53,340 nt of DNA from Nanobdellota archaeon (GCA_051819665.1 JBNJDG010000006.1:1-53340), one strand, 5' to 3'; numbered from the stretch's first letter, positions 37,006-53,340 are shown. Numbers and translations: made by a program. Notes: generated from the letters alone by a model not told the origin.

Positions 37006-37923
37006 TTAATCCTCTTGTGGATTGTCCCTTATCACAAGGCTCTTCTGGATGATATCCTTGTACTTGTAACTAAGTTCAAGTGTGACCTGTTTCGTATAGA
37101 GGTCATCCTTGTCAAGCTGATCCGATTTGCACCTGATCTTGGCTTTACCATCATTGAGCCTTGAAACATTACCGCTTCCTGAACTTGAACAGTCAAAGCC
37201 AACATTCTCGTCGTTGCCTTCTGTCATCTCGAACTCAAACTTGTTATGCATCGAGTTGAACTCCTTTCCGGGTCTTGCGACTTCTCCACCTCCAACATTC
37301 TCCACATTGAAGATGAGGGTTATCTGTTTTGATCCGCCGGGTTGCTGCTTAACCTTCTTGACGGTAAGAGGTGCTCCGGAAGCGAAAACTTCCTTCTTCT
37401 CATCAAGTTTGCAGAGGCTGTCGTCCCTGTAATCACCTTTGAAGCATACGGAGGGCACTGATACATAAGTCTTGTAATCGTATTTCACTGTGGCGAAGAA
37501 ATCCGCTTCATGGGTCAGACCTCCGACATCTTCGAGCATGGCATTTCCGAAGCTTATCGTTTCCTGGCCGCCTCTTTCGTTGTATTCTGAAACCTTTTCA
37601 AGTTCTTCTTGATTGCTTTTCACTGGGTCATCTATCCCGAACATCTTTGTATCGATTCCCTGGATGGTCACATTAAGATCTCCTGGAGAGATGTCCTCTT
37701 CCCCTTTGTTCTTCACGGTTATTTCTACAGGGAACTCTTCGCCTTCCCAGACAGTCTGGACACCATTCACATCTGTGCCCATGACCTCGAAATTGGCGAT
37801 GACGCCCTGCGTACCTCCATAGTAGACAGGCGGTTCCACATCTGAACTTCCGTCTCCGCTGCCTTCGCAGCCGCTCAGTATCATGACTGCTGCAATTGCC
37901 ATTATAATGAATAATCTTTTCAT
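37006..37923 (-). CDS. Putative lipoprotein, paralog 1 of a tandem family
   Basis: Signal peptide with lipobox ILSGC; beta-rich Cys-paired domain shared with its neighbours. Confidence 0.8.
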   Translation of the reverse strand: MKRLFIIMAIAAVMILSGCEGSGDGSSDVEPPVYYGGTQGVIANFEVMGTDVNGVQTVWEGEEFPVEITVKNKGEEDISPGDLNVTIQGIDTKMFGIDDPVKSNQEELEKVSEYNERGGQETISFGNAMLEDVGGLTHEADFFATVKYDYKTYVSVPSVCFKGDYRDDSLCKLDEKKEVFASGAPLTVKKVKQQPGGSKQITLIFNVENVGGGEVARPGKEFNSMHNKFEFEMTEGNDENVGFDCSSSGSGNVSRLNDGKAKIRCKSDQLDKDDLYTKQVTLELSYKYKDIIQKSLVIRDNPQED

Positions 37924-37927
37924 ATTA

Positions 37928-38890
37928 TCACTCCTCGTAACCTCTTATCTCGATATTCCTTTTTATATGAGTCCTGTAACCATATTCAAGCTCTATGGAA
38001 AGGGATGTCTTGTATGCGCTTCCTCCTCCTATGTCCGGATATGTGCAAGATACTCTCCCTCCTCCTTCGCTGATCTTTATATTGTTTGAAGGCTCGCAGT
38101 TTTTTGTAATGGATTCCTCTCCGACCTGAACTTCTATAAGGTCCACTGTATTCATATCTGCCGGGCTGAAGCCGGTAGGTCTTTTCCTTGGTTCCCAGAT
38201 ATCCTGCAGATCTATAACATCGCCATTACCTGCATTCCTTATATTGAATGTGAACCTCATCTTATTTCTCATGTTGTCTACCTTGACATGAGATACTGTC
38301 ACCGGCGCGCCTTGTCCAGAGCCCATGCTTACATCCTGTGAAACACAGGCCTTGTCTCCATAGGATCTGTGTGGATTAGGGTCTATGCATACTGTATCTG
38401 AAGCGAGCGTCTCGTATTCGTAAAGTGCGTATATCATGATGGGAATCTGGTATTTTTCCGTCCCGCTTGGTAGGTTAATTTCCCCCGACTGTCTCTGGAT
38501 GAGTTTGTATCCCCCTTCTCTGTTGAATTGGCTCCTTCCCGGAAGCTCTCCAAAAGAGAGCCCTTGTGATGGATTAGGGAGATATGAATAAGCGTCCAGA
38601 TCCTGTCCTGTAGTTGAACTACCCGTGGTTCCTATGATCCCTGTATCATAACCTGTGATATACAGCCATCCTTCATTAATAGTATGAGCACCTTTATTGT
38701 AAAGCTCTAAACCGACAGGAAGAACATCTCCCTCATAAACAACCCTTGGTGGATTATTTTTCAGGAGCTTCATCTCAAGGCCCTGTGTACCTCTCCTGAA
38801 ATTAACATCCCCTTCTTCTGACTTTTCTGTAGAGCAGCCGCTGATAAGAACGATCATCAATACTATAATGAAGAGTACATGAGGCCTCAT
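37928..38890 (-). CDS. Putative lipoprotein, paralog 2
   Basis: Lipobox LISGC; GTQGLEM..NNPP, YEYET..VCIDP, GQGAPV, YGYR. Confidence 0.8.
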   Translation of the reverse strand: MRPHVLFIIVLMIVLISGCSTEKSEEGDVNFRRGTQGLEMKLLKNNPPRVVYEGDVLPVGLELYNKGAHTINEGWLYITGYDTGIIGTTGSSTTGQDLDAYSYLPNPSQGLSFGELPGRSQFNREGGYKLIQRQSGEINLPSGTEKYQIPIMIYALYEYETLASDTVCIDPNPHRSYGDKACVSQDVSMGSGQGAPVTVSHVKVDNMRNKMRFTFNIRNAGNGDVIDLQDIWEPRKRPTGFSPADMNTVDLIEVQVGEESITKNCEPSNNIKISEGGGRVSCTYPDIGGGSAYKTSLSIELEYGYRTHIKRNIEIRGYEE

Positions 38891-38914
38891 ATATACCCAC
38901 TCTCCGGTTTTTCA

Positions 38915-39832
38915 TTATTTAAAGTTTTCGTTTTCATTGGCCAAGATCTTTATTTCTTTAGAATCAGATATTGTGTAGCCATATGAAAGATCAAGGTTGA
39001 TTGATGTTATATAGGAAGTGTCCCTTTTTTCCAGGGCTTCTTTCGGTTTGCATCTTGCTCTCCCTTCATCCCTTACTTTTATCCTCTGTGGTTGACAGTC
39101 CATCCTTTTCCCGGCTATCTTACCGGTGATATCTACAGTATTGAAGTATTCTTCCCTCATCTCACCATCACCACAGAAAGCTTTCAGAGAGTTGTCGTCG
39201 ATGATCCTCCCTCTGCCTTTGTTCCTGATGTAGATCTCGAATACGGGTTTTATATTTCCTTCTTCATCCTTGCTCATTGTCTGCTCAATCCTGGTTATGG
39301 CAACAGGAGCTCCCTGTCCGGAAAAGCTCTGGTCCTTAACAGTACATGGCTTATCTATGTCCTTCAGGTTGTAAACATCAGGGTCTATGCATACCTCTGT
39401 ATCAAGATGGGTCCCGTATTCGTAACATATGCTTGTAAGGATCTTAGAGGAGTGGATACTGCTCATCTCCTCAAGCTCTTTCGTGGTGCTGTAAAACATC
39501 CATTCGTCCCTTTTCCCATCAGGACTGTACCTTGACTTACCCTCAAGAGTAAAACCATAACTCCCATGGAAAGGCTTTTCTATATAAGCGTCTTCCACTG
39601 TTATTGACAAAAGTCCATCTCCAATATCATGGGCACCTTCATTCTTCATCTCTATGCCAATAGGCACTTCCTGCCCTTCAAAGAATTCTCTCGGGGGAGC
39701 ATTATCTATAAAATCCATCCTCACTCCTCTTGTGCCCTTATAGGGGTCAAAATCCTTTATTGCCCCTCCGCTGCATCCGGCAAGAGCAAGTGAGAGAATT
39801 ACTATTATCAGGATGATGCCTCTTTTTTCCAT
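38915..39832 (-). CDS. Putative lipoprotein, paralog 3
   Basis: Lipobox LAGC; GTRGVRM..NAPP, YEYGT..VCIDP, GQGAPV, YGY. Confidence 0.8.
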   Translation of the reverse strand: MEKRGIILIIVILSLALAGCSGGAIKDFDPYKGTRGVRMDFIDNAPPREFFEGQEVPIGIEMKNEGAHDIGDGLLSITVEDAYIEKPFHGSYGFTLEGKSRYSPDGKRDEWMFYSTTKELEEMSSIHSSKILTSICYEYGTHLDTEVCIDPDVYNLKDIDKPCTVKDQSFSGQGAPVAITRIEQTMSKDEEGNIKPVFEIYIRNKGRGRIIDDNSLKAFCGDGEMREEYFNTVDITGKIAGKRMDCQPQRIKVRDEGRARCKPKEALEKRDTSYITSINLDLSYGYTISDSKEIKILANENENFK

Positions 39833-39867
39833 ATTATCCTCTGCCTGGTCTTATTTTATAAATCTTT

Positions 39868-41346
39868 CTAATCCCCTTTCACATGGAAAGTCTTGTGAGC
39901 ATTAGTGAGGTAATCGTAATCTGCAATGACCCTTATGTATTTGGTTGAAAGAGGGGCAGAGCCCACGATGGCAGTCTTTTTCCTTGAATAAAGCGGGCAT
40001 GAGATTGTCCTGTATCTTTTTATCTCGCCTATGTCCTCTTTAAGCTTATAGAAAAAATAACGTTGGCATTCATCTATGCATCCTTCATCTCCTTCACATC
40101 TGTCTGCGCATCCTGATTCGGTGAGAGGGACTTTTTCCATCTCATGGTCGCATCTCTCAAGTTTCAGTTTCATGCTCTTCGGGACCTGTATCTCAAGCTC
40201 GTTTATGTCCTTTATATGGCCTTCCCATCCGTTCTCCAAGGTTATACCGAGTCTCGCCAGTCTCTCATCATTCTTGCTCACAGGTATCGGCTGGTAATCT
40301 ACAGTCCCTATACCAATCTTGATCGGCCCGCTAGTGTAGACTGCGGTAGGGTTCCTGTCCTTTACATCGTATTCCTCCAGGGGATCAGTACCTTCTTTCC
40401 TCAATGCCCTCAGCCTGGCCTCTTCTATGAAGTACGCTTTGGTATAACCCAATGTGCTGAAATCATACTCGGCGAAGAAATTCACTTTGAATGTTCCTTC
40501 AGGCAGGTCATCGAAGACACAGTCCATGGATTTTTCCTCATAGCTGAATATGCTGAAGCTGTCATACCTGCCGTTTTCAGGATAGGTCCTCGTGGCATTG
40601 TCGCTGGAGTTGCATATCATCCTGACTTCCTTTTCCTTATCAAGGGTTTTACCCTTTACAGTAGCCCAGAAAGTCATCTCCTCACCTTCTTTAAGGATGG
40701 GGCTTGATGCTTTTATATCTTCTATATAGATACCCAGCCTCTCGTCCTTCTCGCCTTCTTCCACTCTGCCTGTGAAGTAACCGCCGCTGGCATAATCAAG
40801 CTGTTTTTTCGTGAAATTGCCCCAATTTGCTGCTGGATCCCAGTCTTTCCAGAAAGTAAGTGTCTCTGCGGAGCTTATCGCCACTTCCTTGCTTAATGAT
40901 TTAATTGAACCTTCGGACATTATTGCAGTGTCGCTCAATAATATCGGGGCTACAAAGTATACGAATGCAGCCACGATGCCTATGATGATTACGAACTGGG
41001 CAAGAGGGTATTCCCTGACAAATTTAGTGCGCATCAGTTCAATCAAAACTCCGATTATCAGGAAAGGATAGAAGAAATGGTTGAAGAAGAAATATATCGG
41101 TACGCCGATGAATAGGAGAATCAGGAAAAGCTTCAGGCCTTTGGATTCCCTGACCATCTCTGTCTGCATGAGCATCAGGAAGATCATCAGGCCGATGAAT
41201 GGGAAAAAGAAAGGGTTAAATAGTATGTATATGGCAACTCCTCCAATCACGGCAGCTATGAGAAGTTTTATCCATGTATTGCCATGTTCGCTCATGTGCT
41301 GCTTTACCGAATCCGCGCCTTGCTGGAGCGTGTCTTTGATCCCCAT
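39868..41346 (-). CDS. Membrane protein with repeated N-terminal TM segments and an extracellular Cys-containing domain
   Basis: Repeated TM unit (aa ~25-135) then a beta-rich domain with YDFST, SGPI, ADYDY, loosely resembling the downstream lipoproteins. Confidence 0.72.
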   Translation of the reverse strand: MGIKDTLQQGADSVKQHMSEHGNTWIKLLIAAVIGGVAIYILFNPFFFPFIGLMIFLMLMQTEMVRESKGLKLFLILLFIGVPIYFFFNHFFYPFLIIGVLIELMRTKFVREYPLAQFVIIIGIVAAFVYFVAPILLSDTAIMSEGSIKSLSKEVAISSAETLTFWKDWDPAANWGNFTKKQLDYASGGYFTGRVEEGEKDERLGIYIEDIKASSPILKEGEEMTFWATVKGKTLDKEKEVRMICNSSDNATRTYPENGRYDSFSIFSYEEKSMDCVFDDLPEGTFKVNFFAEYDFSTLGYTKAYFIEEARLRALRKEGTDPLEEYDVKDRNPTAVYTSGPIKIGIGTVDYQPIPVSKNDERLARLGITLENGWEGHIKDINELEIQVPKSMKLKLERCDHEMEKVPLTESGCADRCEGDEGCIDECQRYFFYKLKEDIGEIKRYRTISCPLYSRKKTAIVGSAPLSTKYIRVIADYDYLTNAHKTFHVKGD

Positions 41347-41347
41347 C

Positions 41348-42715
41348 TTATTCGCACAACGCTTCCTTGACAGTATCCTCGGACTTGCTTTCCCCGTAGA
41401 TCCTTGAGCCTTCGCATTTACAGCGCCAGCTGGTGTCTTCCACTTTGCCTTCGTTCTTCACGTAGATCTTGTTACCGTCTTCACAGAAATATCTGTAATC
41501 ATCAGCGTCATATTCAGGCACTAACCTGAGGACCATCTCTGCCACTTCGATCCTCTGGCCGTCAGGCTTCAGTTTCATCCAGTTGTCCTCTTCCTTGAGA
41601 TGGTCTGCGGGGATGATCCTGCTGTATTCTTCATCTTCTGATCTTATCTGTCTCTTATATCCGTTCACGTTCATTATAAGATCATAGTCGTCATTGGTCA
41701 CGAACTCGAAGGATACATTCGCGGAAAGCTCGCCGTTGACAATTTCTTCGTAATTATCCTTCAAATCAAAATAATAGACAGGGTAATCTATATCTTTCAG
41801 GTCTGTCCTCACTTCTATAAGGTCTATCAGATAGTCGCCCTTATCCGTCTTGAATAAGAGCTCGTTCTCTCCCTGTTCTACGTAAGTCGGAGGGAAGTCT
41901 ATCACATTGAGCATCTGGCAATCAGGTATGCCGTAATAGAGCTCCCTTGAGTTAAGCTTTATCTGGAGCTTACCTACCCTGCTCTGCTCGCAGTTGGGGC
42001 TGAATTTCAGTTTTGCCCTCTCTACATTATTTGCTTCGCTTCCCGAGACGAAGAAGGTGTTCTTGCTGTCCTGCTTAGAGAGATCGGTTATATCTCCGAT
42101 GACCCTCACATTCTCGAGGCTGTACTCATTGGTCTTCCAGAACCTTGCCCCTACGCTGGAGACGGAGAATTTTAGGGTGTTTGCTTCTGAGAGCATCTCT
42201 CCCGGCAACTCTATGGGATTGGGATTATATTCTTCTATATCCTTCTCGTATATTATGTTGCCATTGAGTTCTATCGTAAGTATTCCTTCATTCTTATTGG
42301 AAATGAAACCCAGCCTTACATCTTTCGTGTTTTCAGGATCCGGAATCTCGAAAGTCATCTCATGGGTTTTTTCCTTCATTATATTGTTTTTTATGATGAA
42401 AGGATTCTCTTCTTTGATCGTATTGGAATCTGTCGACCTGTACAGGGTGAAGCTCGATATCTCATGAGAGCATTCATTGCTCATACATTCTTTGATATCG
42501 TTTATATCAAGCCTGCCCGGTCTTTTGCGCATCACTTCTACTTCATTGAGCTCTTTATAATCTACCTGGTCCTCTGAAGGGCCTTCTATATCTTCCTCCA
42601 GAAGATCTTCTCTTACATTTGCGGGAAGGAATAGTATATAGAGTATTATTGCCAGAGCTATAAGTCCAACCAGGGCCGCAGCTCCTCCGGCTCCATCACC
42701 TTTTTTGGCTACCAT
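41348..42715 (-). CDS. Secreted or membrane-anchored acidic surface protein
   Basis: MVAKKG followed by a hydrophobic helix (class III signal-like); repeated beta-rich units (L.I.LN...IY, N.LKF). Confidence 0.75.
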   Translation of the reverse strand: MVAKKGDGAGGAAALVGLIALAIILYILFLPANVREDLLEEDIEGPSEDQVDYKELNEVEVMRKRPGRLDINDIKECMSNECSHEISSFTLYRSTDSNTIKEENPFIIKNNIMKEKTHEMTFEIPDPENTKDVRLGFISNKNEGILTIELNGNIIYEKDIEEYNPNPIELPGEMLSEANTLKFSVSSVGARFWKTNEYSLENVRVIGDITDLSKQDSKNTFFVSGSEANNVERAKLKFSPNCEQSRVGKLQIKLNSRELYYGIPDCQMLNVIDFPPTYVEQGENELLFKTDKGDYLIDLIEVRTDLKDIDYPVYYFDLKDNYEEIVNGELSANVSFEFVTNDDYDLIMNVNGYKRQIRSEDEEYSRIIPADHLKEEDNWMKLKPDGQRIEVAEMVLRLVPEYDADDYRYFCEDGNKIYVKNEGKVEDTSWRCKCEGSRIYGESKSEDTVKEALCE

Positions 42716-42745: not shown

Positions 42746-43621
42746 TTATTTTCTATTTTCGTGGGCCCGTCTTAAGAGGTTCTTGTCCTCTTCCGATTGT
42801 TTTTTCTTCCTTCTCTCGAACATCCTTCTCTGTATCTCTATGGCCTTCTCCGGGTCGAGATCATGGCCGAACATCCTGAAATCTCCTTTATCTGTTTTCA
42901 CAGTCCCTTCTAAATGGGTATTCACGCCTATCCTTACACCAGTGTAGATTGATGTGTTGATTGAGGTCTTGCTGTAATCGCCTATCACACAGCCTATAAA
43001 TTGTTCTCCTGTGTTTATTGTATTGTCTTCTCCGTCCTTCACCTTTATATCTCCATAGGTGTTCTTCAGGTCTGAATTTGTGGTGCCTGCCCCTATATTG
43101 ACCCAGCTGCCGATGAAGCTGTTCCCTATATAACCGAGATGTTGTTTGTTAGAGTAATCACAGATTATGCTCTCCTCTATCTCTCCTCCGACTTTACAGG
43201 TGTTCCCTATATGGCACATACAGACTTTGCTGTGGGGGTTTATCCTGCTGTTCTTACCTATGAAGACAGGTCCTTCTATTACACAGAATGGGCCTATCTC
43301 CGCTCCCTCGCTTATATAGACAGGCCCTTCACTGGTATCAAGAACAGCAGTCTCATGGACACAGCTTCCTTCTTCCCTTATTATGTCCTTCTTGCCGGTC
43401 ATGAACTCCAGGTTTTCCTTAAGATACTTCCTGTTATAGATTATAACCTCATGAGGATAAGTAATCTTTTCAGGTTCATCTTTCTTCAGGTTTGATACAG
43501 ATGGTACTGTACTCTTATCCCTGTATCCTATATCGGCATACTTTGAGAGTTCTTTCAGTGTGAATCCCGCTATGGGAATCTCATCGGCTTCTCTTGTCTT
43601 AGTGATAGGGTCGAGTTTCAT
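42746..43621 (-). CDS. GlmU-like left-handed beta-helix acyltransferase with a short N-terminal region
   Basis: Hexapeptide repeats GPVYISEGAEIG, KVGGEIE, SNKQHLGYIGNSFIGSWVNIGAGTTNSDLKN. Confidence 0.82.
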   Translation of the reverse strand: MKLDPITKTREADEIPIAGFTLKELSKYADIGYRDKSTVPSVSNLKKDEPEKITYPHEVIIYNRKYLKENLEFMTGKKDIIREEGSCVHETAVLDTSEGPVYISEGAEIGPFCVIEGPVFIGKNSRINPHSKVCMCHIGNTCKVGGEIEESIICDYSNKQHLGYIGNSFIGSWVNIGAGTTNSDLKNTYGDIKVKDGEDNTINTGEQFIGCVIGDYSKTSINTSIYTGVRIGVNTHLEGTVKTDKGDFRMFGHDLDPEKAIEIQRRMFERRKKKQSEEDKNLLRRAHENRK

Positions 43622-45333
43622 TCTACAGTCACCGATTTCGCCAGGTTCCTCGGTTTGTCTATATCACATCCTTTGTCTCTGGCTATATGATAGGCAATCA
43701 ACTGAAGAGGGATTACACTCAGGAAAGGAGTCAGCTCGTCTGATGTTTTCGGTACTTCAAGCACATCATCAGCGTATTTGCCTATCTCCCCATCTTCTTC
43801 GGTGGAGATGGCGATCACTTTCCCTCGCCTGGCTTTAACTTCCTGTATGTTCGAGAGGACTTTCTCATAAGATTGGTCTTTCACACAGATGAAGACAGAG
43901 GGCATGTCCTTGTCGATAAGGGCTATAGGTCCGTGCTTCATCTCTGCGGCAGGATAGCCTTCTGCATGTATATAGCTTATCTCCTTAAGCTTGAGGGCCC
44001 CTTCAAGAGCTATAGGATAATTGACGCCCCTGCCCAGGAAAAGGGAATTATTCTTCGAGTTATATTCTTTGGTAAGTTCCATTATCTCTTTTTCTTTCGA
44101 GAGTATCTCTCTTATCTTATCGGGAATCTTTTCGAGTTCTTTGTTTATCCTTCCCCTTCCTATCCTTCCAGCTATCATCATCAGAACGGTCAGTTGTGTC
44201 GTAAAAGCCTTCGTTGAAGCTACACCTATCTCCGGGCCTGCTCTTGTATAAAGGGTTGTATCGCTTATCCTGTCTATTGTGCTCCCAGTTACATTGCATA
44301 TAGAGATTATCTTTGCGCCTTTCTTCTTCGCTTCCTTGATCCCTGCTACCGTATCTGCGGTCTCTCCACTCTGGCTGATGGCTATGACGGTGGTGCCTTT
44401 CTCTATCACCGGATCCCTGTATCTGAATTCTGAAGCATATTCGACTTCCACCGGTACTCCGGCGAGTTTCTCTATCCAATACTCTGCCACAAGGCCTGCA
44501 TGCCATGATGTCCCGCATCCGATGATGACTATCCTTCTGATGTCCTTTGGGATGTCCTTGACTTGTCCTCTGAGAGTCCTTTCTATAACTTCCGGCTGTT
44601 CATGTATCTCTTTGTGCATGAAATGTTCATAATTTCCCTTCATAACCTGCTCTACAGACCATTGGACTTTCTCACTCTTTTTCCTGATCTCTTTCCCTTT
44701 GAAATCAGTGAAGCTCACCTTTCCGTCGATGTATGCTATCTCTCCGTCTTTCATGAAGTATGCATCTTTCGTGTATGGCAGGAAGGGGCTGACATCGGAA
44801 GCCACGAACATCCCTCTTTTCCCTGTGCCTATGACGAGGGGACTTCCGTTCCTCACTGCGATCATCCTGTCCGATCTTTTGTCTATGGCTGCGAAAGCGA
44901 AGCTTCCCTTTAATTTTTTGACCGTCTTCCTGACTCCTTCCTCAAAATCATCGTATTGGGCTATAAGGTTGGGTATGACTTCTGTGTCAGTTTCAGAGTA
45001 AAGCTCCATCCCTTCGTTGAGTTCGGCATAATTTTCTATTATCCCGTTATGCACCACGAATATCCTATTATCCTTATCATGATGGGGGTGCGAGTTATTT
45101 TTAGTGACTCCGCCGTGTGTGGCCCATCTGGTGTGGCCTATGCCCAGATGAGCTTTCTCTTCGTCTTCTTTCTCATCCGAGATCCTCCCTACTTTCTTTT
45201 TCAGCTTTACCTTGTCTCCTGTCTTCAGAGCAATGCCCCATGAGTCATAACCTCTGTATTCGAGCGTCTTAAGCCCTTTCTTTATGATCCCTGAAGCATC
45301 TTCTGGTCCTTTATATCCGAATATCCCGCACAT
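43618..45333 (-). CDS. glmS: Glutamine--fructose-6-phosphate aminotransferase (isomerizing)
   Basis: MCGIFG, LEYRGYDS, HTRWATHG, HNGIIEN, SQSGETAD, EGALKLKE, DKPRNLAKSVTVE. Confidence 0.98.
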   Translation of the reverse strand: MCGIFGYKGPEDASGIIKKGLKTLEYRGYDSWGIALKTGDKVKLKKKVGRISDEKEDEEKAHLGIGHTRWATHGGVTKNNSHPHHDKDNRIFVVHNGIIENYAELNEGMELYSETDTEVIPNLIAQYDDFEEGVRKTVKKLKGSFAFAAIDKRSDRMIAVRNGSPLVIGTGKRGMFVASDVSPFLPYTKDAYFMKDGEIAYIDGKVSFTDFKGKEIRKKSEKVQWSVEQVMKGNYEHFMHKEIHEQPEVIERTLRGQVKDIPKDIRRIVIIGCGTSWHAGLVAEYWIEKLAGVPVEVEYASEFRYRDPVIEKGTTVIAISQSGETADTVAGIKEAKKKGAKIISICNVTGSTIDRISDTTLYTRAGPEIGVASTKAFTTQLTVLMMIAGRIGRGRINKELEKIPDKIREILSKEKEIMELTKEYNSKNNSLFLGRGVNYPIALEGALKLKEISYIHAEGYPAAEMKHGPIALIDKDMPSVFICVKDQSYEKVLSNIQEVKARRGKVIAISTEEDGEIGKYADDVLEVPKTSDELTPFLSVIPLQLIAYHIARDKGCDIDKPRNLAKSVTVE

Positions 45334-45342
45334 TTTCTCTCC

Positions 45343-48051
45343 TCATATCCCTTTCATTATTTCCGGTAGTTCTTTGAAATCCTGTATAGAATGGTCTGCT
45401 CTTTCATCCTCCCCGAAGATTATCGTGGTCGCATTCATCTCCTTTGGTATGGCCAGGTCCTTATCAAAATCATCTCCTATGATCACGCATTCGTCCGCTT
45501 CGAGGTTGAATCTCTCGAAGACCTTCCTGTAATATTCCTTGCTTGGTTTCATCTTACCTATCTGGGGGGAAGTAATAACCATATCGAACTCGTTGATTAT
45601 GTCAAGGGCCTTAAGTTTCTCTTTGGTTAAGTTGTCTTCACTGAATACTATTTTCAGATAGTTCTTGAGAAGCGGAAGGGCCTCCCTGAATCCCTTGTTA
45701 AGCCTTATCTCTTTCATTATAGTGTTCTTGAATCTTTCATGCGCTTTATTATGATTCTTTGAACCTAGAGCTTCGGCAAGCCTTGCGTATGAGTATTCTC
45801 TTGTCCTCTTCTCCGGGTCTTTTTCTTTGATGAGTTCCTTGACGATCTCTTTCCATCTTTCATATGCCTTAGCAGGGTCATCAGAAAGCTCTTTCATGGC
45901 TTCCATATCGGCTTTTTCCGCAATCTCCTTAGTCCTGTATATAGTATTGTCTGCATCGAAGAGTATGGCCCTTATCAGCTTATCCCTGACAATATCCTCA
46001 TTCACGAGCTTGTATGGGAAGACCATCTTGCCCGGTTTAGAGGTTATGTTGTCCTCAATGGTCACATTCTCTCCTGTGAAAAGACCTGCCTTCCTGATGT
46101 TCGGGTTCACGAACCTCCCTTTAACATAAATGCTTTCAGGGTTTTCAGATTCTGTCCTGAAATTGTCTCCTATCGTATTGTCCTCTCCAAGGACGCTGGC
46201 GTCTATGAAACAGTCTTTCCCTATCTTGGTGCCTCTCATTACCACTGAATCCCTTATCCTTGTCCCTTTGCCTATATAACCGTCTATAGAGCAATAACCT
46301 TCTATCTTGACATCATCAGCGATGACAGCTCTGGGAGAGACATAACTTTCTCTGCTTATCTCCGCGTTCCCTATATTATTGCTGAGATGGCCTCCGCCGA
46401 ATCTCCTTAGCATAAGCCTGTTGACTTCCAGGATGTTCCATGCCCTCCCCAGATCAACCCTGGTGGCTTCTGTTATCCAGTACTCTACATCGGAGTTTTC
46501 CATAAGATAAGCCTGGGGTGGTTTATTTGGCTTGATACCTTCTCTTTCAAGTGCATTGAATAACACATCTGCATTGATTATACTCAGGCCTACATTTGCG
46601 AGATTAGAGGGAGCGTTCTCTTTCGGTTTCTCTTTTATGCCTTTGATCTTCTCCCCCTCGAATTCTATTATTCCGTATTCACTTGGGTCTTCTACCCTTC
46701 TTAGTGTAAGTACGTTCTTCTCGTCCCTGTGTTTGTCAAGGATCTTTCTCGTCTCATCATCTGAAGATATGCTGTCTCCGTATTTTAGTATGAAGATGCT
46801 GTGCTTTATATGCTCTCTTGCAGAATATATGGCATCTGCAGGCCCTCTCTGTTTTTCCTGTATGACGAATTTTATATCTGCTGTATAATTGTTGGCAAAG
46901 TAGCTTCTTATCTGTCTTATGTTGTCCTTATTGCATACAATGGTGATGTCTTCAATTCCATTATCGAGCATCTCATCCACATGGTGTGCCAGGAGGGGTT
47001 TCCCGAGGAAAGGGATCATCGTCTTTGATTTGGATAATGAGAAAGGCTTCATCCTCGTTCCATTGCCTGCGGCAAGAATCAGGCCTTTAACTTCCTTCTT
47101 CACCAGGCCCATAAGGGCATCAGCAGTTTTCCCCGGATCATGCCTTATGCTGCTCACCTTGTTCCATTCGGCCTTTTTCCCTTCCTTCTTCAGGATATCT
47201 CTCTCGATAATCTCTGTCCTTATGTTCTCTTTGTCCTTCTTTATCTCATATCCTCCTTCTTTCTCGTATTCTTTGAGAATCTCTCTCGGAATTGGGCCCT
47301 TATGGAGAAGCACATAATCCAGTCCTCCGCAGTATCTTGAAGCCTCGTTTACGTGTTCCGAGGCACTATATCCGTCTGTCTGGCCCGCCTGGGTGATCAT
47401 ATTGGAGACGAATACTTTCTTTCCTTCGGTCTCCATCATGGCTTTCCTTAAACCGGGAAGGAGGAAGTGGACAAGAACACTTGTATAGAGGCTCCCCGGC
47501 CCTATGACTATGAGGTCTGCTTTCTTCACTGCATTAATGGCGTCCTTTGTGGCTTCCGCATCCTCATCCTTCAGGAATATCTTCTTTATTTTCGATTTGT
47601 TTGGGGCTCTTACATTGAGCTCTTCCTCCACGATGCTTCCGTCTTCAAGTTCGGCACACACATGGGTGTTCTTCTCAGTAGAAGGTATTACCTTCCCATG
47701 TATCCTCAGGATCTCACTCATATGCTTGATGCCCTTACTAAGACTGCCTTCCACCTTGGTCATTGCTGTCAGCAGAAGGTTCCCCATGCTCATGCCTTTC
47801 AGATCCTCTCCCTTGTCGAACCTGTACTGTAGAACATCCTTGAAGAGGGGCTCAGAATCAGACAAGGCTATAAGGCAGTTCCTTAGATCTCCCGGGGCAG
47901 GGATATCGAAATTCCTCCTGATGACCCCTGTGCTCCTTCCCGAGTCTGTGACAGCGACGATTCCTGTAATGTTACAGTCATATTCCTTGAGTCCTCTGAG
48001 GATCTCGGATTGTCCGGTTCCTCCTCCGATGCAGACGATATTCGGTTTCAT
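45343..48051 (-). CDS. Fusion: YvcK/GlmR (CofD-like) + sugar-phosphate nucleotidyltransferase + LbH + HAD hydrolase
   Basis: aa 1-318 IGGGTG, DSGRSTG, PGDLRN, GPGSLYTS, RHDP; aa ~320-555 LILAAGNGTRMKP, KTMIPFLGKP, YGD, EKP; hexapeptide region; aa ~697-902 ILFDADNT, KP, IGDDFDKDL. Confidence 0.9.
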   Translation of the reverse strand: MKPNIVCIGGGTGQSEILRGLKEYDCNITGIVAVTDSGRSTGVIRRNFDIPAPGDLRNCLIALSDSEPLFKDVLQYRFDKGEDLKGMSMGNLLLTAMTKVEGSLSKGIKHMSEILRIHGKVIPSTEKNTHVCAELEDGSIVEEELNVRAPNKSKIKKIFLKDEDAEATKDAINAVKKADLIVIGPGSLYTSVLVHFLLPGLRKAMMETEGKKVFVSNMITQAGQTDGYSASEHVNEASRYCGGLDYVLLHKGPIPREILKEYEKEGGYEIKKDKENIRTEIIERDILKKEGKKAEWNKVSSIRHDPGKTADALMGLVKKEVKGLILAAGNGTRMKPFSLSKSKTMIPFLGKPLLAHHVDEMLDNGIEDITIVCNKDNIRQIRSYFANNYTADIKFVIQEKQRGPADAIYSAREHIKHSIFILKYGDSISSDDETRKILDKHRDEKNVLTLRRVEDPSEYGIIEFEGEKIKGIKEKPKENAPSNLANVGLSIINADVLFNALEREGIKPNKPPQAYLMENSDVEYWITEATRVDLGRAWNILEVNRLMLRRFGGGHLSNNIGNAEISRESYVSPRAVIADDVKIEGYCSIDGYIGKGTRIRDSVVMRGTKIGKDCFIDASVLGEDNTIGDNFRTESENPESIYVKGRFVNPNIRKAGLFTGENVTIEDNITSKPGKMVFPYKLVNEDIVRDKLIRAILFDADNTIYRTKEIAEKADMEAMKELSDDPAKAYERWKEIVKELIKEKDPEKRTREYSYARLAEALGSKNHNKAHERFKNTIMKEIRLNKGFREALPLLKNYLKIVFSEDNLTKEKLKALDIINEFDMVITSPQIGKMKPSKEYYRKVFERFNLEADECVIIGDDFDKDLAIPKEMNATTIIFGEDERADHSIQDFKELPEIMKGI

Positions 48052-48317
48052 ATAAGCATCATTCGGGAAGGTTCTTTTATAATTTACTGTGAATGGATTT
48101 ATATCAATCAGAACAAAAAGATATTTTTGGGTTTTTATTTATTTAAGAATAAATATTTTTATTTTTTGGCTTTGAATAAGGGTTTTTTATTCTTTTAGGA
48201 CATTTTAATGCATGAAATGATTTTACTGGCCATTCGATTATTATTAATATCCATAATAATATTTTAAATTTAATCAAAATAATAAAATTTATTAATAACG
48301 GTCTCTTCCTCTCTTTT

Positions 48318-49268
48318 ATGTATGGTCAGCAGAAGGACACATATATCATGAAGAGGAGTGGAAAGGGATTCGTTTACTCTCCTGCCAGGATGCTGGAGAA
48401 TCCGGAAAGCCTTAAGGTGATAAGCAGTCCTGTAAGGATAAGGATCCTTTCCCTGCTTTCACAAAGGGGCATGTACCCTTCAGAATTGTCAGGATCTCTC
48501 GGAATGAATGAGCAGAAGGTGTATTATCATCTTAAGCAGCTCCATAACCAAGGGGTTCTTGAGGTCATCGAGAAGAAAGAGATAAGAGGGGCTGTGGCGA
48601 AGAAGTACGCTTCTTCTGTCCTGAATTTTGCTGTCTCTCTGGGTGATTCCTGGGAGCCTTTATCCAATCTGAAAGAGACGACTACAAAAGGCGAGAGGTT
48701 CCTGAGGGAATTTGTCAGGGACGGGCAGTTCAACGGTTATGTTGTGGTGGGTAGCCCAGATCCACACGGTTCTTTCAGGGCCTATGCGAGAGATGGCCAT
48801 TATGCGATAGATCTCTCTATGTTCCTCGGGAGACATTGTTCTCTTGCAGATTCTTTCAGCGTAAAACTTGATGTTGATGTCATGAACGAGAAGGCCCGTA
48901 ATGAGAACTTAGTGCTTGTCGGAGGGCCTGTTACAAATATGCTTGTCTCTGAGGTGAACTCTCATCTCCCTGTGCGTTTCAGTGATAAGAGACCCTGGGG
49001 TCTTTACAGTACAAAGACTGGCAAGCACTATACGGACGATACAGTCGGGCTTATAGCCAAGATACCGAATCCTTTCAATCGGGAGAAGTCGATAATCCTT
49101 TTGGCGGGGATAAGGTACATAGGTACAAAGGCTGCTGTGATGGCGCTGACCAGGAAGGTTTCACTTTTGCTCAAAGACTATGGGGACAGCAGGGCATGGT
49201 CTTCTGTAGTCCAGGGTTTCGATCTTGACAGTGATGGGAAGATAGATTCGGTAGAGATACTTGAATGA
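48318..49268 (+). CDS. ArsR-type wHTH regulator with a C-terminal ligand-binding-like domain
   Basis: SSPVRIRIL, YPSELS, EQKVYYHLKQL; C-terminal VVGSPDPHG, NLVLVGGPVTN, AGIRYIGT; divergent from the glm operon. Confidence 0.82.
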   Translation: MYGQQKDTYIMKRSGKGFVYSPARMLENPESLKVISSPVRIRILSLLSQRGMYPSELSGSLGMNEQKVYYHLKQLHNQGVLEVIEKKEIRGAVAKKYASSVLNFAVSLGDSWEPLSNLKETTTKGERFLREFVRDGQFNGYVVVGSPDPHGSFRAYARDGHYAIDLSMFLGRHCSLADSFSVKLDVDVMNEKARNENLVLVGGPVTNMLVSEVNSHLPVRFSDKRPWGLYSTKTGKHYTDDTVGLIAKIPNPFNREKSIILLAGIRYIGTKAAVMALTRKVSLLLKDYGDSRAWSSVVQGFDLDSDGKIDSVEILE

Positions 49269-51966: not shown

Positions 51967-52830
51967 TTATGGGAAGAGTGTAACCATTTTGCTCGTCAGC
52001 GGAGGAATATTGGTCCTTTTCGTCAGCGGTTTCCCTTCGGGTGTGTAGAAGGTGAGCTTAATATAATCTGCTTCCGGGATCCTATCCTCCGTTTCAAGGT
52101 GTATCTTGATCATATCTCCGTGCTTCAGGTATCCTTCTTCCTGATTATCCGATTCCATTGCATATTCGACATTATATATGCCTTCTCCCTTTTTTTTCGG
52201 CAGTATGGTTGTCTCCATGCCTTTGAGGATATGCGCTTCCTCTGTTGATCCGGATATATTCATCTTTCCGAACCGGGTTCCGTCTTTCTCGATGCTGAAT
52301 ACATCGTTTATAGAGACTCCTGTTTCATTTATCCTCGGAATCTCTACATCCACAAGACCTTTCTCGCTCAGATTGAATCTCAGTCTTGTATCGTTCTTCA
52401 CCCTTACAGAATCCTCTTCCAGATCTCCGTCAAGATCCGTCAACAGGGGTTTCTCGGAATGGTTTATTTCTCCCTTTAATTCTCTGTCCTTATTTGTGAA
52501 ATACCTGTCTTCACTGTAACTAAGGGTGGTACTGGTTCTGGGGGAATGGACTGCGATCATGAGGTCTTCCAGTTTGAGTGACCGGCTGCTCGGCCCGACT
52601 TTCACAAGAAGGCTCAGTTCTTCTATGGCTTTCTTCGATACTTCCCCCTTCACTCTTTCGAGTTTGAGATCCATGCCGATGGCTTCTCTGGCTTCTCTGC
52701 CTGTACTGAGTGCATCACTCTGCAGGGACCTTTGAGTATGGAGTATGACGCCTGCTCCTATTGATGCCGCAAGTATTCCGGATATGAACACTATCAGGGT
52801 GCCGATACCTATTACTCCTTTCTTTCTCAT
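51967..52830 (-). CDS. Archaellin-like protein (class III signal peptide)
   Basis: MRKKG|VIGIGTLIVFISGILAASIGAGVIL...LQSDALSTG matches the archaellin N-terminus; C-terminal LKHGD...TPEG..T pattern. Confidence 0.8.
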   Translation of the reverse strand: MRKKGVIGIGTLIVFISGILAASIGAGVILHTQRSLQSDALSTGREAREAIGMDLKLERVKGEVSKKAIEELSLLVKVGPSSRSLKLEDLMIAVHSPRTSTTLSYSEDRYFTNKDRELKGEINHSEKPLLTDLDGDLEEDSVRVKNDTRLRFNLSEKGLVDVEIPRINETGVSINDVFSIEKDGTRFGKMNISGSTEEAHILKGMETTILPKKKGEGIYNVEYAMESDNQEEGYLKHGDMIKIHLETEDRIPEADYIKLTFYTPEGKPLTKRTNIPPLTSKMVTLFP

Positions 52831-52952
52831 GTTCTTATTTATCCTCTTTTGTGTTAATAAGTTTTGTGTTGTTCTTATTATTTAATACTAATAAAACTTT
52901 TTATACTGCCTCATATAGTGATTAGATTATAGAAATAGAATATGGTGGTTAC

Positions 52953-53340
52953 ATGGGTTTTTTCAGCTTTTTAAAGAAAAAGAAATCAGGTTCTTCGAAT
53001 GGAGAAAAGGATTCCTCTATCCATTTTCCGGGCAAGGATGGTTCCGGCGGCCAGGGTATGCCTCAGCCTCCGAAGCCCCCCGCAGGTAGTGGAAGCCAAC
53101 AGCCCGGTGGCCAGGGCAGTATGCCTCAGCCTCCAAAGCCTCCCGCAGGTAGCGGAAGCCAACAGCCTGGTGGCCAGGGCAGTATGCCTCAGCCCCCGAA
53201 GCCTCCCGCAGGTAGTGGAAGTCAGCAATCTGGTGGCCAGGGTATGCCTCAGCCTCCAAAGCCTCCCGCAGGTAGTGGAAGTCAGCAATCTGGCGGTCAG
53301 GACAGGATAGCAGATGATCTTTCTCCGCAGGGCCAACAGG
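52953..53340 (+). CDS. Pro/Gly/Gln-rich repeat protein (partial, runs off the right edge)
   Basis: SD-like GGTGG then MGFFSFLKKKKSGSSNGEKDSSIHFPGKDGS(GGQG[S]MPQPPKPPAGSGSQQ[P/S])x4; frame open to the edge. Confidence 0.82.
   Translation, partial: MGFFSFLKKKKSGSSNGEKDSSIHFPGKDGSGGQGMPQPPKPPAGSGSQQPGGQGSMPQPPKPPAGSGSQQPGGQGSMPQPPKPPAGSGSQQSGGQGMPQPPKPPAGSGSQQSGGQDRIADDLSPQGQQ
53046..53300 (+). repeat. Coding tandem repeat, four units of 60/63 bp
   Basis: Units start at 53046, 53106, 53169, 53232, with a partial unit at 53292; differences are mostly synonymous in the 52953 frame. Confidence 0.93.

Follow-up and report, generated by a model that had tools for sequence, protein, structure and literature searches.

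Can a YvcK/GlmR protein take the place of the phosphoglucosamine mutase GlmM in UDP-N-acetylglucosamine (UDP-GlcNAc) synthesis? The question is raised by a minus-strand operon in a stretch of 53,340 nucleotides (nt) from a Nanobdellota archaeon (GCA_051819665.1 JBNJDG010000006.1:1-53340; "the window" below means this whole stretch). Its first gene (45343..48051) encodes a 902-amino-acid (aa) protein in which a YvcK/GlmR domain is fused to a GlmU-type nucleotidyltransferase (NT), a degenerate left-handed beta-helix (LbH), and a HAD phosphatase, and it is followed by glmS and by a gene for a second LbH protein. Among bacteria, YvcK/GlmR is a conserved protein of importance to cell-wall synthesis; whether its biochemical role is that of a GlmS activator, an accessory uridylyltransferase, or neither is in dispute. 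An earlier account of the locus made without homology searches (the sequence-only reading) had placed the operon in a hexosamine and UDP-GlcNAc context, which is borne out by the neighbors of yvcK at related loci. We consider it an even bet (probability of about 0.5) that the operon makes UDP-GlcNAc and that YvcK, usually with a HAD protein carrying a DxD[DN]T motif, performs the GlmM step, i.e., the shift of the phosphate from position 6 to position 1, as suggested by gene displacement. There is a fair chance that this version of hexosamine synthesis involves a new enzyme activity.

Phosphohexomutases in genomes with and without yvcK

We scored GlmM with TIGR01455 and its cut-off, and counted phosphohexomutase copies across one set of 401 genomes from the order. 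The yvcK gene was present in 82 of them (79 above the cut-off), mostly as a stand-alone gene for 310 to 350 aa, and glmS in 253. No yvcK genome had a TIGR01455 match above the cut-off (0/82; best score, 230 bits), compared with 36 of 80 yvcK-negative glmS genomes, which were chosen from 203 (32 from families also holding yvcK and 48 from other families). At least two phosphohexomutases were found in 2/82 yvcK genomes versus 175/319 others and, among the 253 glmS genomes, in 1/50 with yvcK versus 152/203 without it, or 1/50 versus 144/195 when ten genomes flagged as unpublished, none of which has yvcK, were left out. The same held within families: among 13 mixed ones, six differed as predicted (f20, f37, f40, f107, f113, and f119), seven were uninformative, and none was reversed (sign test, p 0.03), the difference in f40 resting on scores of 330-416 bits, below the cut-off and above the 230 bits of the yvcK genomes. 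PF02878 (PGM_PMM_I) alone had masked this pattern, and the exclusion appeared upon counting and typing the copies.

The two genes also share an operon position. We picked 40 glmS loci from the listed matches, 39 being yvcK-negative and one (L383) coming from a yvcK genome, and located glmS in 39 of them (it was missed in L295). A mutase gene lay within three genes of glmS in 22 of these 39, typically in the order regulator<glmS>glmM>glmU, and the four glmS-adjoining mutase genes that were scored were all above the GlmM cut-off, at 575-592 bits. The yvcK-type counterpart reads regulator<glmS>yvcK>HAD>glmU (L257 and L260; also L275 and L276). In the neighborhood of yvcK matches, a mutase-family gene occurred in one of 120 stretches: L181 has a divergent 709-aa phosphoglucomutase (PGM) gene (L181:6421-8547) directly upstream of a HAD-YvcK fusion. 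In a FastTree phylogeny of 80 mutases, all 31 from 30 yvcK genomes fell on the phosphomannomutase/phosphoglucomutase (PMM/PGM) side and none in the glmS-linked clade. Four genomes with both glmS and yvcK (G093, G113, G342, and G364; 96-100% complete) had no match to either mutase domain (PF02878 or PF02879).

Within three genes of yvcK at 83 loci, we found a HAD gene 41 times, an NT gene 31 times, glmS 22 times, and an ArsR gene 12 times. Our second HAD profile was derived from the yvcK neighbors themselves, and hence we recounted by the DxD[DN]T motif: such a HAD was within three genes at 38/82 yvcK loci (L264 excluded) versus 2/816 genes further away, and at 0/40 glmS loci without yvcK. A HAD gene, of the DxDGV motif type, was also present in five glmM-type operons. 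Among 20 further loci, those of family f93 had yvcK>HAD>NT in nine of nine, with glmS in the stretch in just two. The domain arrangements seen were YvcK-NT-LbH-HAD, NT-LbH-HAD beside a free YvcK, HAD-YvcK, HAD-YvcK-GNAT, and YvcK-HAD; HAD and YvcK are joined in three domain orders. We favor YvcK plus HAD as a GlmM substitute because the exclusion is complete (0/82), holds within families, and involves the same operon slot; because the 31 mutases placed in the tree from yvcK genomes are all on the PMM/PGM side and four genomes are mutase-free; and because the DxD[DN]T HAD is linked to yvcK and fused to it in three orders. YvcK thus resembles GlmM (TIGR01455/TIGR03990) in operon position and presumed step, with no relation to it in sequence or fold.

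The sequence-only reading had pointed out that the window lacks glmM, and there is indeed no phosphohexomutase gene in it. A search of the genome likewise returned no GlmM, but it did return one PMM/PGM-type gene, truncated at the edge of contig C16 (81 bits versus the GlmM cut-off of 448), which rules out the argument that the HAD domain replaces GlmM since no mutase exists. What stands of that suggestion is that something here may replace GlmM, given the 0/82 exclusion and the shared slot; the HAD domain alone is an unlikely mutase because it is with yvcK that the absence of glmM is associated, and because the domain is not of the DxDGV type. Directly upstream of the sole PMM/PGM gene, at G000:C16:17716-19171, lies a gene for an NT with an N-terminal ribbon-helix-helix-like extension. 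Elsewhere, the mutases of yvcK-negative genomes with glmS>GNAT (L285-L293, L356, L362, and L363) form a divergent clade characterized by an SHNE loop and are candidates for the phosphoacetylglucosamine mutase of a eukaryote-like route.

Anatomy of the fusion protein and its operon

The 902-aa frame is free of stops, and all four parts named in the sequence-only reading were detected in it. Pfam matched CofD at 5-282, NTP_transferase at 322-502, and HAD at 693-877, with weak LbH/hexapeptide matches at 565-632 (hexapeptide, 25.4 bits, below the cut-off of 27), and all four parts fold in an AlphaFold model (mean pLDDT, 88.7). Besides the query, 26 proteins, with identities of 42-58%, have CofD, NTP_transferase, and HAD matches together (52 matches, 7998 candidates scored), which rules out an assembly artifact as the source of the fusion. 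The named relatives are mostly Candidatus Woesearchaeota, which suggests that the window comes from this group, and some records bear other titles; the leads from an ESM Atlas search with the fusion were all below 0.9. Contig support reaches one of the two junctions: the LbH/HAD junction is spanned without differences by one contig piece of run X5 (45868-46114), and the YvcK/NT junction near 47100 by no piece among those listed. As had been supposed, the architecture appears undescribed, since we found no paper on it in the open literature, subscription papers and supplements being outside the scope; within the same scope, none was found on an archaeal YvcK or on YvcK displacing GlmM. The relatives are annotated, NCBI labeling some of them "YvcK," but, as far as we found, not described.

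The N-terminal domain (aa 1-317; 47101..48051) belongs to YvcK and not to true CofD, as the sequence-only reading had it. It scored 330 bits with TIGR01826 (YvcK; cut-off, 196), with E values of 5e-76 to B. halodurans YvcK versus 0.026 to CofD and fold-search Z scores of 33 to YvcK versus 23-24 to CofD/FbiA. A wide fold search returned nothing but these two families above background; GT-B and ribokinase-like rows reached Z 7-9 and do not separate mechanisms. True CofD identity is ruled out by the E values together with the lack of a match to CofC (PF01983) in the window's 96%-complete genome. With GlmR/YvcK (B. subtilis GlmR; B. halodurans BH3568, PDB 2HZB/2O2Z), the domain shares a TM-score of 0.94 over the target, 40% identity, and the link to the hexosamine pathway, whereas it differs in being archaeal, fused to three other domains, encoded in a glmS/glmU operon in the place of glmM, and housed in a genome with no match to RapZ/YvcJ (PF03668; whiA was not searched for). 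CofD/FbiA has the same fold and a similar pairing of a transferase with a nucleotidyltransferase (CofC/FbiD, in F420 synthesis) but only 18% identity.

T12, D36, D55, N217, Y262, and R303 are kept, D36 and D55 being invariant in 25 fusions and R39 present in 25/25. The UDP-sugar-binding residues of B. subtilis YvcK are T14, N218, Y265, and R301 (PMC5482804; here and below, statements on cited papers refer to the parts of them available to us). The first three correspond to T12, N217, and Y262 in the alignment to 2HZB, and R301 corresponds to R303 by the position of the RHD motif, found in 89/89 archaeal rows. On the other hand, of the catalytic residues predicted for the uridylyltransferase activity of Listeria GlmR, D40, D41, and N198 (PMC10128056), only one is kept, as D36; S37 replaces D41, and H195 replaces N198. 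Position 37 is D in 12/89 archaeal and 66/130 bacterial YvcK rows.

The closest solved relative of the NT (aa about 320-548; 46408..47094) and LbH (aa about 552-688; 45988..46398) is the archaeal bifunctional GlmU of S. tokodaii, ST0452 (PDB 2GGO/5Z0A), although this part scored 187.5 bits with TIGR03992 (archaeal GlmU), below the cut-off of 292.1. The NT motifs are intact (GxGxR...K, GD, EKP, and DxG), with G329, R333, K343, G425-D426, E474-K475, and D533 invariant in 25 fusions, and the substrate is likely N-acetylglucosamine 1-phosphate (GlcNAc-1-P), possibly glucose 1-phosphate. The fusion LbH has K and F in place of the His-x-x-Tyr of ST0452 (His308/Tyr311), which we take to be the acetyltransferase catalytic residues of GlmU (we found no primary paper for this). 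None of the 25 fusion rows has His or Tyr in those columns, and the column make-up suggests that the role of this LbH is probably structural. Acetylation seemingly resides in the separate 291-aa protein (42746..43621), of the alt_bact_glmU type (TIGR03991, 265 bits versus a cut-off of 225), which keeps His-x-x-Tyr (HLGY versus HLSY in ST0452) and Asn, has a vestige of an NT at its N-terminus, and is a probable glucosamine-phosphate N-acetyltransferase. Because the fusion keeps the NT motifs without His-x-x-Tyr and the 291-aa gene is its mirror image, the two together constitute one GlmU.

The HAD domain (aa 692-902; 45346..45978) is of class IA. Its motifs I-IV (DxD, S/T, K, and GDxxxD) are complete, with D699, D701, S/T804, K835, D860, and D865 conserved in 25/25 fusions, and its nearest solved relative is PH1655 (E 5e-9). 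It thus has all four catalytic motifs of the class IA phosphatases (TIGR02253/PH1655, YjjG/YfnB, and N-acylneuraminate-9-phosphatase) but lies below every family cut-off tried. HADs of the beta-phosphoglucomutase type have DxDGV as motif I; here it is DADNT. A HAD of similar type forms the N-terminus of a 433-aa protein at G000:C60:2773-4073, whose C-terminus looks by eye like a class II aldolase and whose gene adjoins a family B polymerase-like gene.

The window coordinates confirm the operon arrangement that had been described. The gene glmS (43618..45333), for a 571-aa glutamine-fructose-6-phosphate transaminase (TIGR01135, 758.6 bits versus a cut-off of 418), begins 9 nt past the end of the fusion gene and overlaps the 291-aa gene by 4 nt, and an ArsR-type gene is divergent from the fusion gene, with 266 nt between them. 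The spacing suggests that the fusion gene and glmS are cotranscribed. Pieces of the region were found at at least 99% identity in 27/30 bins of RNA runs X1 and X2 (salt-lake metatranscriptomes), as contigs that may hold DNA and that demonstrate neither transcription nor cotranscription.

Possible roles of YvcK in the operon

If YvcK and HAD substitute for GlmM, then GlmS, by its family assignment, would supply glucosamine 6-phosphate (GlcN-6-P), and YvcK and HAD would relocate the C6 phosphate to C1, perhaps via a 1,6-bisphosphate. The downstream LbH protein, with its kept residues, would acetylate, the fused NT, judging from its motifs, would form the UDP-sugar, and binding of UDP-GlcNAc may provide feedback control. 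Where a genome lacks glmS, the module would serve to activate amino-sugar 6-phosphates obtained by scavenging. As to the chemistry, we tentatively prefer two steps, in which YvcK would move a nucleotide phosphate to the anomeric hydroxyl to give a hexosamine-1,6-bisphosphate and HAD would remove the 6-phosphate, since the gene order glmS>yvcK>HAD>glmU (L257, L260, L275, and L276) matches a kinase-then-phosphatase route. The nucleotide-heptose route GmhA-HldE/HddA-GmhB-HddC likewise consists of a SIS enzyme, a 1-kinase, a HAD phosphatase, and a nucleotidyltransferase. Its logic agrees with the order glmS>yvcK>HAD>NT; the difference is that YvcK has no known kinase fold, ribokinase-like rows being at background (Z 7-8). 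It is rather unlikely that YvcK is itself the mutase and HAD trims side products.

Published genetics fits the substitution. In Bacillus, the lethality of glmR pgcA is rescued by GlmM only, and in Listeria, loss of glmR lowers GlcNAc-1-P and leaves fructose 6-phosphate unchanged (PMC10128056), which puts the block upstream of uridylyl transfer. Other evidence weighs against it. Purified B. subtilis GlmR stimulated GlmS 16-fold (PMC7525490), UDP-GlcNAc was formed in vitro by the Listeria protein, and a Listeria mutant was rescued better by overexpressed glmU than by glmM (both PMC10128056); the authors themselves read their results as GlmS activation or uridylyl transfer (PMC7525490, PMC6171935, and PMC13046274). 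Among our genomes, 70/80 with yvcK keep a PMM/PGM-family gene, possibly promiscuous for the mutase step, and 32/82 have no glmS. GlmM above the cut-off is also missing from 44 of the 80 sampled yvcK-negative glmS genomes, and 45 of the 203 yvcK-negative glmS genomes have a single mutase and six have none, so that GlmM loss does not require YvcK. In the control rows for B. subtilis and E. coli, YvcK and GlmM are both present. No DxD[DN]T HAD was nearby at 44/82 yvcK loci, some of which are contig fragments. Kinship among the genomes means that Fisher p values overstate the associations, and independent-pair tests of the HAD, NT, and GlmS linkage on the YvcK tree yielded five to six pairs and were not significant. 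Finally, the nearest enzyme whose reaction is known, CofD, takes a phospho-ester from its nucleoside diphosphate donor and transfers that rather than a gamma-phosphate.

The likeliest of the alternatives, though itself unlikely, is that YvcK senses UDP-GlcNAc and activates GlmS while tethered to the pathway's final enzyme, with HAD as an overflow phosphatase, the housekeeping PMM/PGM performing the mutase step, and the higher flux permitting the loss of glmM. The kept UDP-sugar-binding residues (T12, N217, Y262, and R303), the direct stimulation seen in B. subtilis (PMC7525490), and the presence of glmS within three genes at 22/83 loci would all suit such an activator. However, glmS and yvcK co-occur at chance across genomes (50/82 yvcK genomes versus 203/319 others, p 0.70), and three genomes of one genus (G327, G353, and G208; 100, 92, and 97% complete) have the full fusion and no glmS, with only weak SIS matches in 340-aa frames. 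YvcK here is therefore not dependent on GlmS, though the genes cluster when both are present. That a GlmR-GlmS regulatory link is the main point, as the sequence-only reading had it, is not supported, glmS being near yvcK less often (22/83 loci) than a HAD (41) or an NT (31). Predicting the complex between the YvcK domain and its cognate GlmS gave a score of 0.00 in two runs, which counts neither way, and no GlmR-GlmS interaction was detected in Listeria in the available part of PMC10128056. Activation also gives no direct reason for the 0/82 co-occurrence with GlmM, and it fails for the four mutase-free genomes.

Less likely again, YvcK may make catalytic amounts of a sugar-1,6-bisphosphate that primes the housekeeping PMM/PGM (and GlmM in bacteria), HAD limiting its level and GlmM being dispensable since a primed PMM/PGM suffices. 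The many yvcK genomes that keep PMM/PGM agree with this, as do P0048, an 856-aa protein joining a YvcK-family domain to a full PGM/PMM, and the divergent PGM gene directly upstream of the fusion in L181. Against it, ten of the 80 yvcK genomes have no PF02878 match, four of these having glmS and no PF02879 match either, and a PMM/PGM gene is almost never near yvcK.

We rank lower still the idea that YvcK, as a CofD-like transferase, comes into play after the NT, passing sugar-1-phosphate from a UDP-sugar to a phosphorylated acceptor whose phosphate HAD strips, to give a phosphodiester solute or glycan building block. CofD/FbiA are the sole clear structural relatives (Z 23-24) and are paired with the nucleotidyltransferase CofC (bioRxiv 10.1101/2021.08.11.456035), D36 and D55 are invariant in the fusions, and a separate HAD-NT-YvcK-like-GT2 fusion exists (L264). 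Such a transferase needs more sugar-1-phosphate and thus predicts no loss of GlmM, the opposite of what is seen, and no product of it is known; the compatible-solute idea was dropped, as no paper was found for a di-GlcNAc-phosphate solute. That YvcK is a second, accessory GlcNAc-1-P uridylyltransferase is very improbable: three Firmicute GlmRs have the activity in vitro (PMC10128056) and a D38A D39A mutant does not complement (PMC13046274), but this would be redundant when fused to an intact NT, two of the three predicted Listeria catalytic residues are changed (S37 and H195), a 2026 preprint doubts the role in vivo, native S. aureus GlmR being unable to cover the loss of other uridylyltransferases (bioRxiv 10.64898/2026.06.23.733835), and both the GlmM exclusion and the HAD are left unexplained.

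Related loci and the biology of YvcK/GlmR

In a sample of the phylum, yvcK was found in 74/301 genomes, nine of them from other orders. A quick IQ-TREE phylogeny of 175 YvcK domains, in which the bacterial rows were a random 45 out of 130, placed most four-domain fusions in one 35-row branch (SH-aLRT 96), with P0011, P0015, and P0032 apart, and split yvcK>NT-LbH-HAD operons branched near the fusions. Although the tree is unrooted, this fits a stepwise fusion.

The regulator gene (48318..49268, plus strand) encodes an ArsR-type helix-turn-helix protein with an S_layer_C-like part by Pfam, and in most loci such a gene is divergent from the first operon gene. It belongs to a family spread widely through the archaea (Atlas scores, 0.94-0.98) that flanks glmM-type and yvcK-type operons alike, and it is likely an undescribed regulator of hexosamine operons. 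Upstream of the regulator, 16 loci (three near-duplicates dropped) share an AT-rich element with a motif information of 25.2 bits in a Gibbs search, versus 14.0-14.9 in 12 control sets from other divergent intergenic regions. The window's copy (48239..48278, plus strand), a TATA-like box with TTA/TAA repeats and a candidate operator, is among the weaker fits. Counting palindromes there was uninformative, the DNA being AT-rich.

Several other loci are worth recording. A GNAT acetyltransferase gene lies beside glmS and yvcK in L200:5563-7767, L180, L202, L187, L023, and L268 (fused in L200 as HAD-YvcK-GNAT); it is likely a GlcN-6-P acetyltransferase, and the window's own genome has no match to it. 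L264:947-4393 (minus strand) encodes a 1148-aa fusion of HAD, NT, a divergent YvcK/CofD-like domain, and a GT2 glycosyltransferase, adjoining an NAD-dependent epimerase gene. About 15 relatives join a CofD-like domain to GT2, and the fusion is possibly a surface-glycan phosphotransferase. A gene for PPi-dependent phosphofructokinase stands after yvcK>glmS and before HAD in L256, L259, and L263. Omnitrophota-like loci (L033-L035, L041, L053-L059, and others) have a recurrent order, with names read from sequence starts, of phosphotransferase-system IIA-like > yvcK > HPr > enzyme I > nucleotidyltransferase > metK-like > ahcY-like. In the window itself, the operon is followed on the same strand by genes with hydrophobic or lipoprotein-like N-termini (37006-42715), kept in the closest relative L182 and without a significant Pfam match in the four of five that were scanned, and 51967-53340 holds an archaellin-like gene (PF01917) and a frame whose repeats are rich in proline, glycine, and glutamine and which extends past the end of the contig.

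For the YvcK/GlmR family, a figure legend in the available part of PMC7525490 gives CofD as the archaeal homolog of glmR, a printed view that the identification of YvcK here corrects. The operon is a natural experiment, with a YvcK without its RapZ partner, in a hexosamine operon from which GlmM is missing, and not met with GlmM in 82 genomes. The pattern points to a specific, assayable reaction, allows the suppressor genetics published for Bacillus to be read in a new way, and may uncover a second pathway leading to UDP-GlcNAc. It is possible, though doubtful, that YvcK/GlmR is generally a nucleotide-dependent hexosamine-phosphate 1-phosphotransferase, which in Woesearchaeota would form, with its partner HAD, a mutase-free route to GlcN(Ac)-1-P displacing GlmM and in bacteria would supply the 1,6-bisphosphate that primes GlmM. 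If true, this would give a new assignment to a protein family with twenty years of study behind it and identify GlmM's missing phosphodonor.

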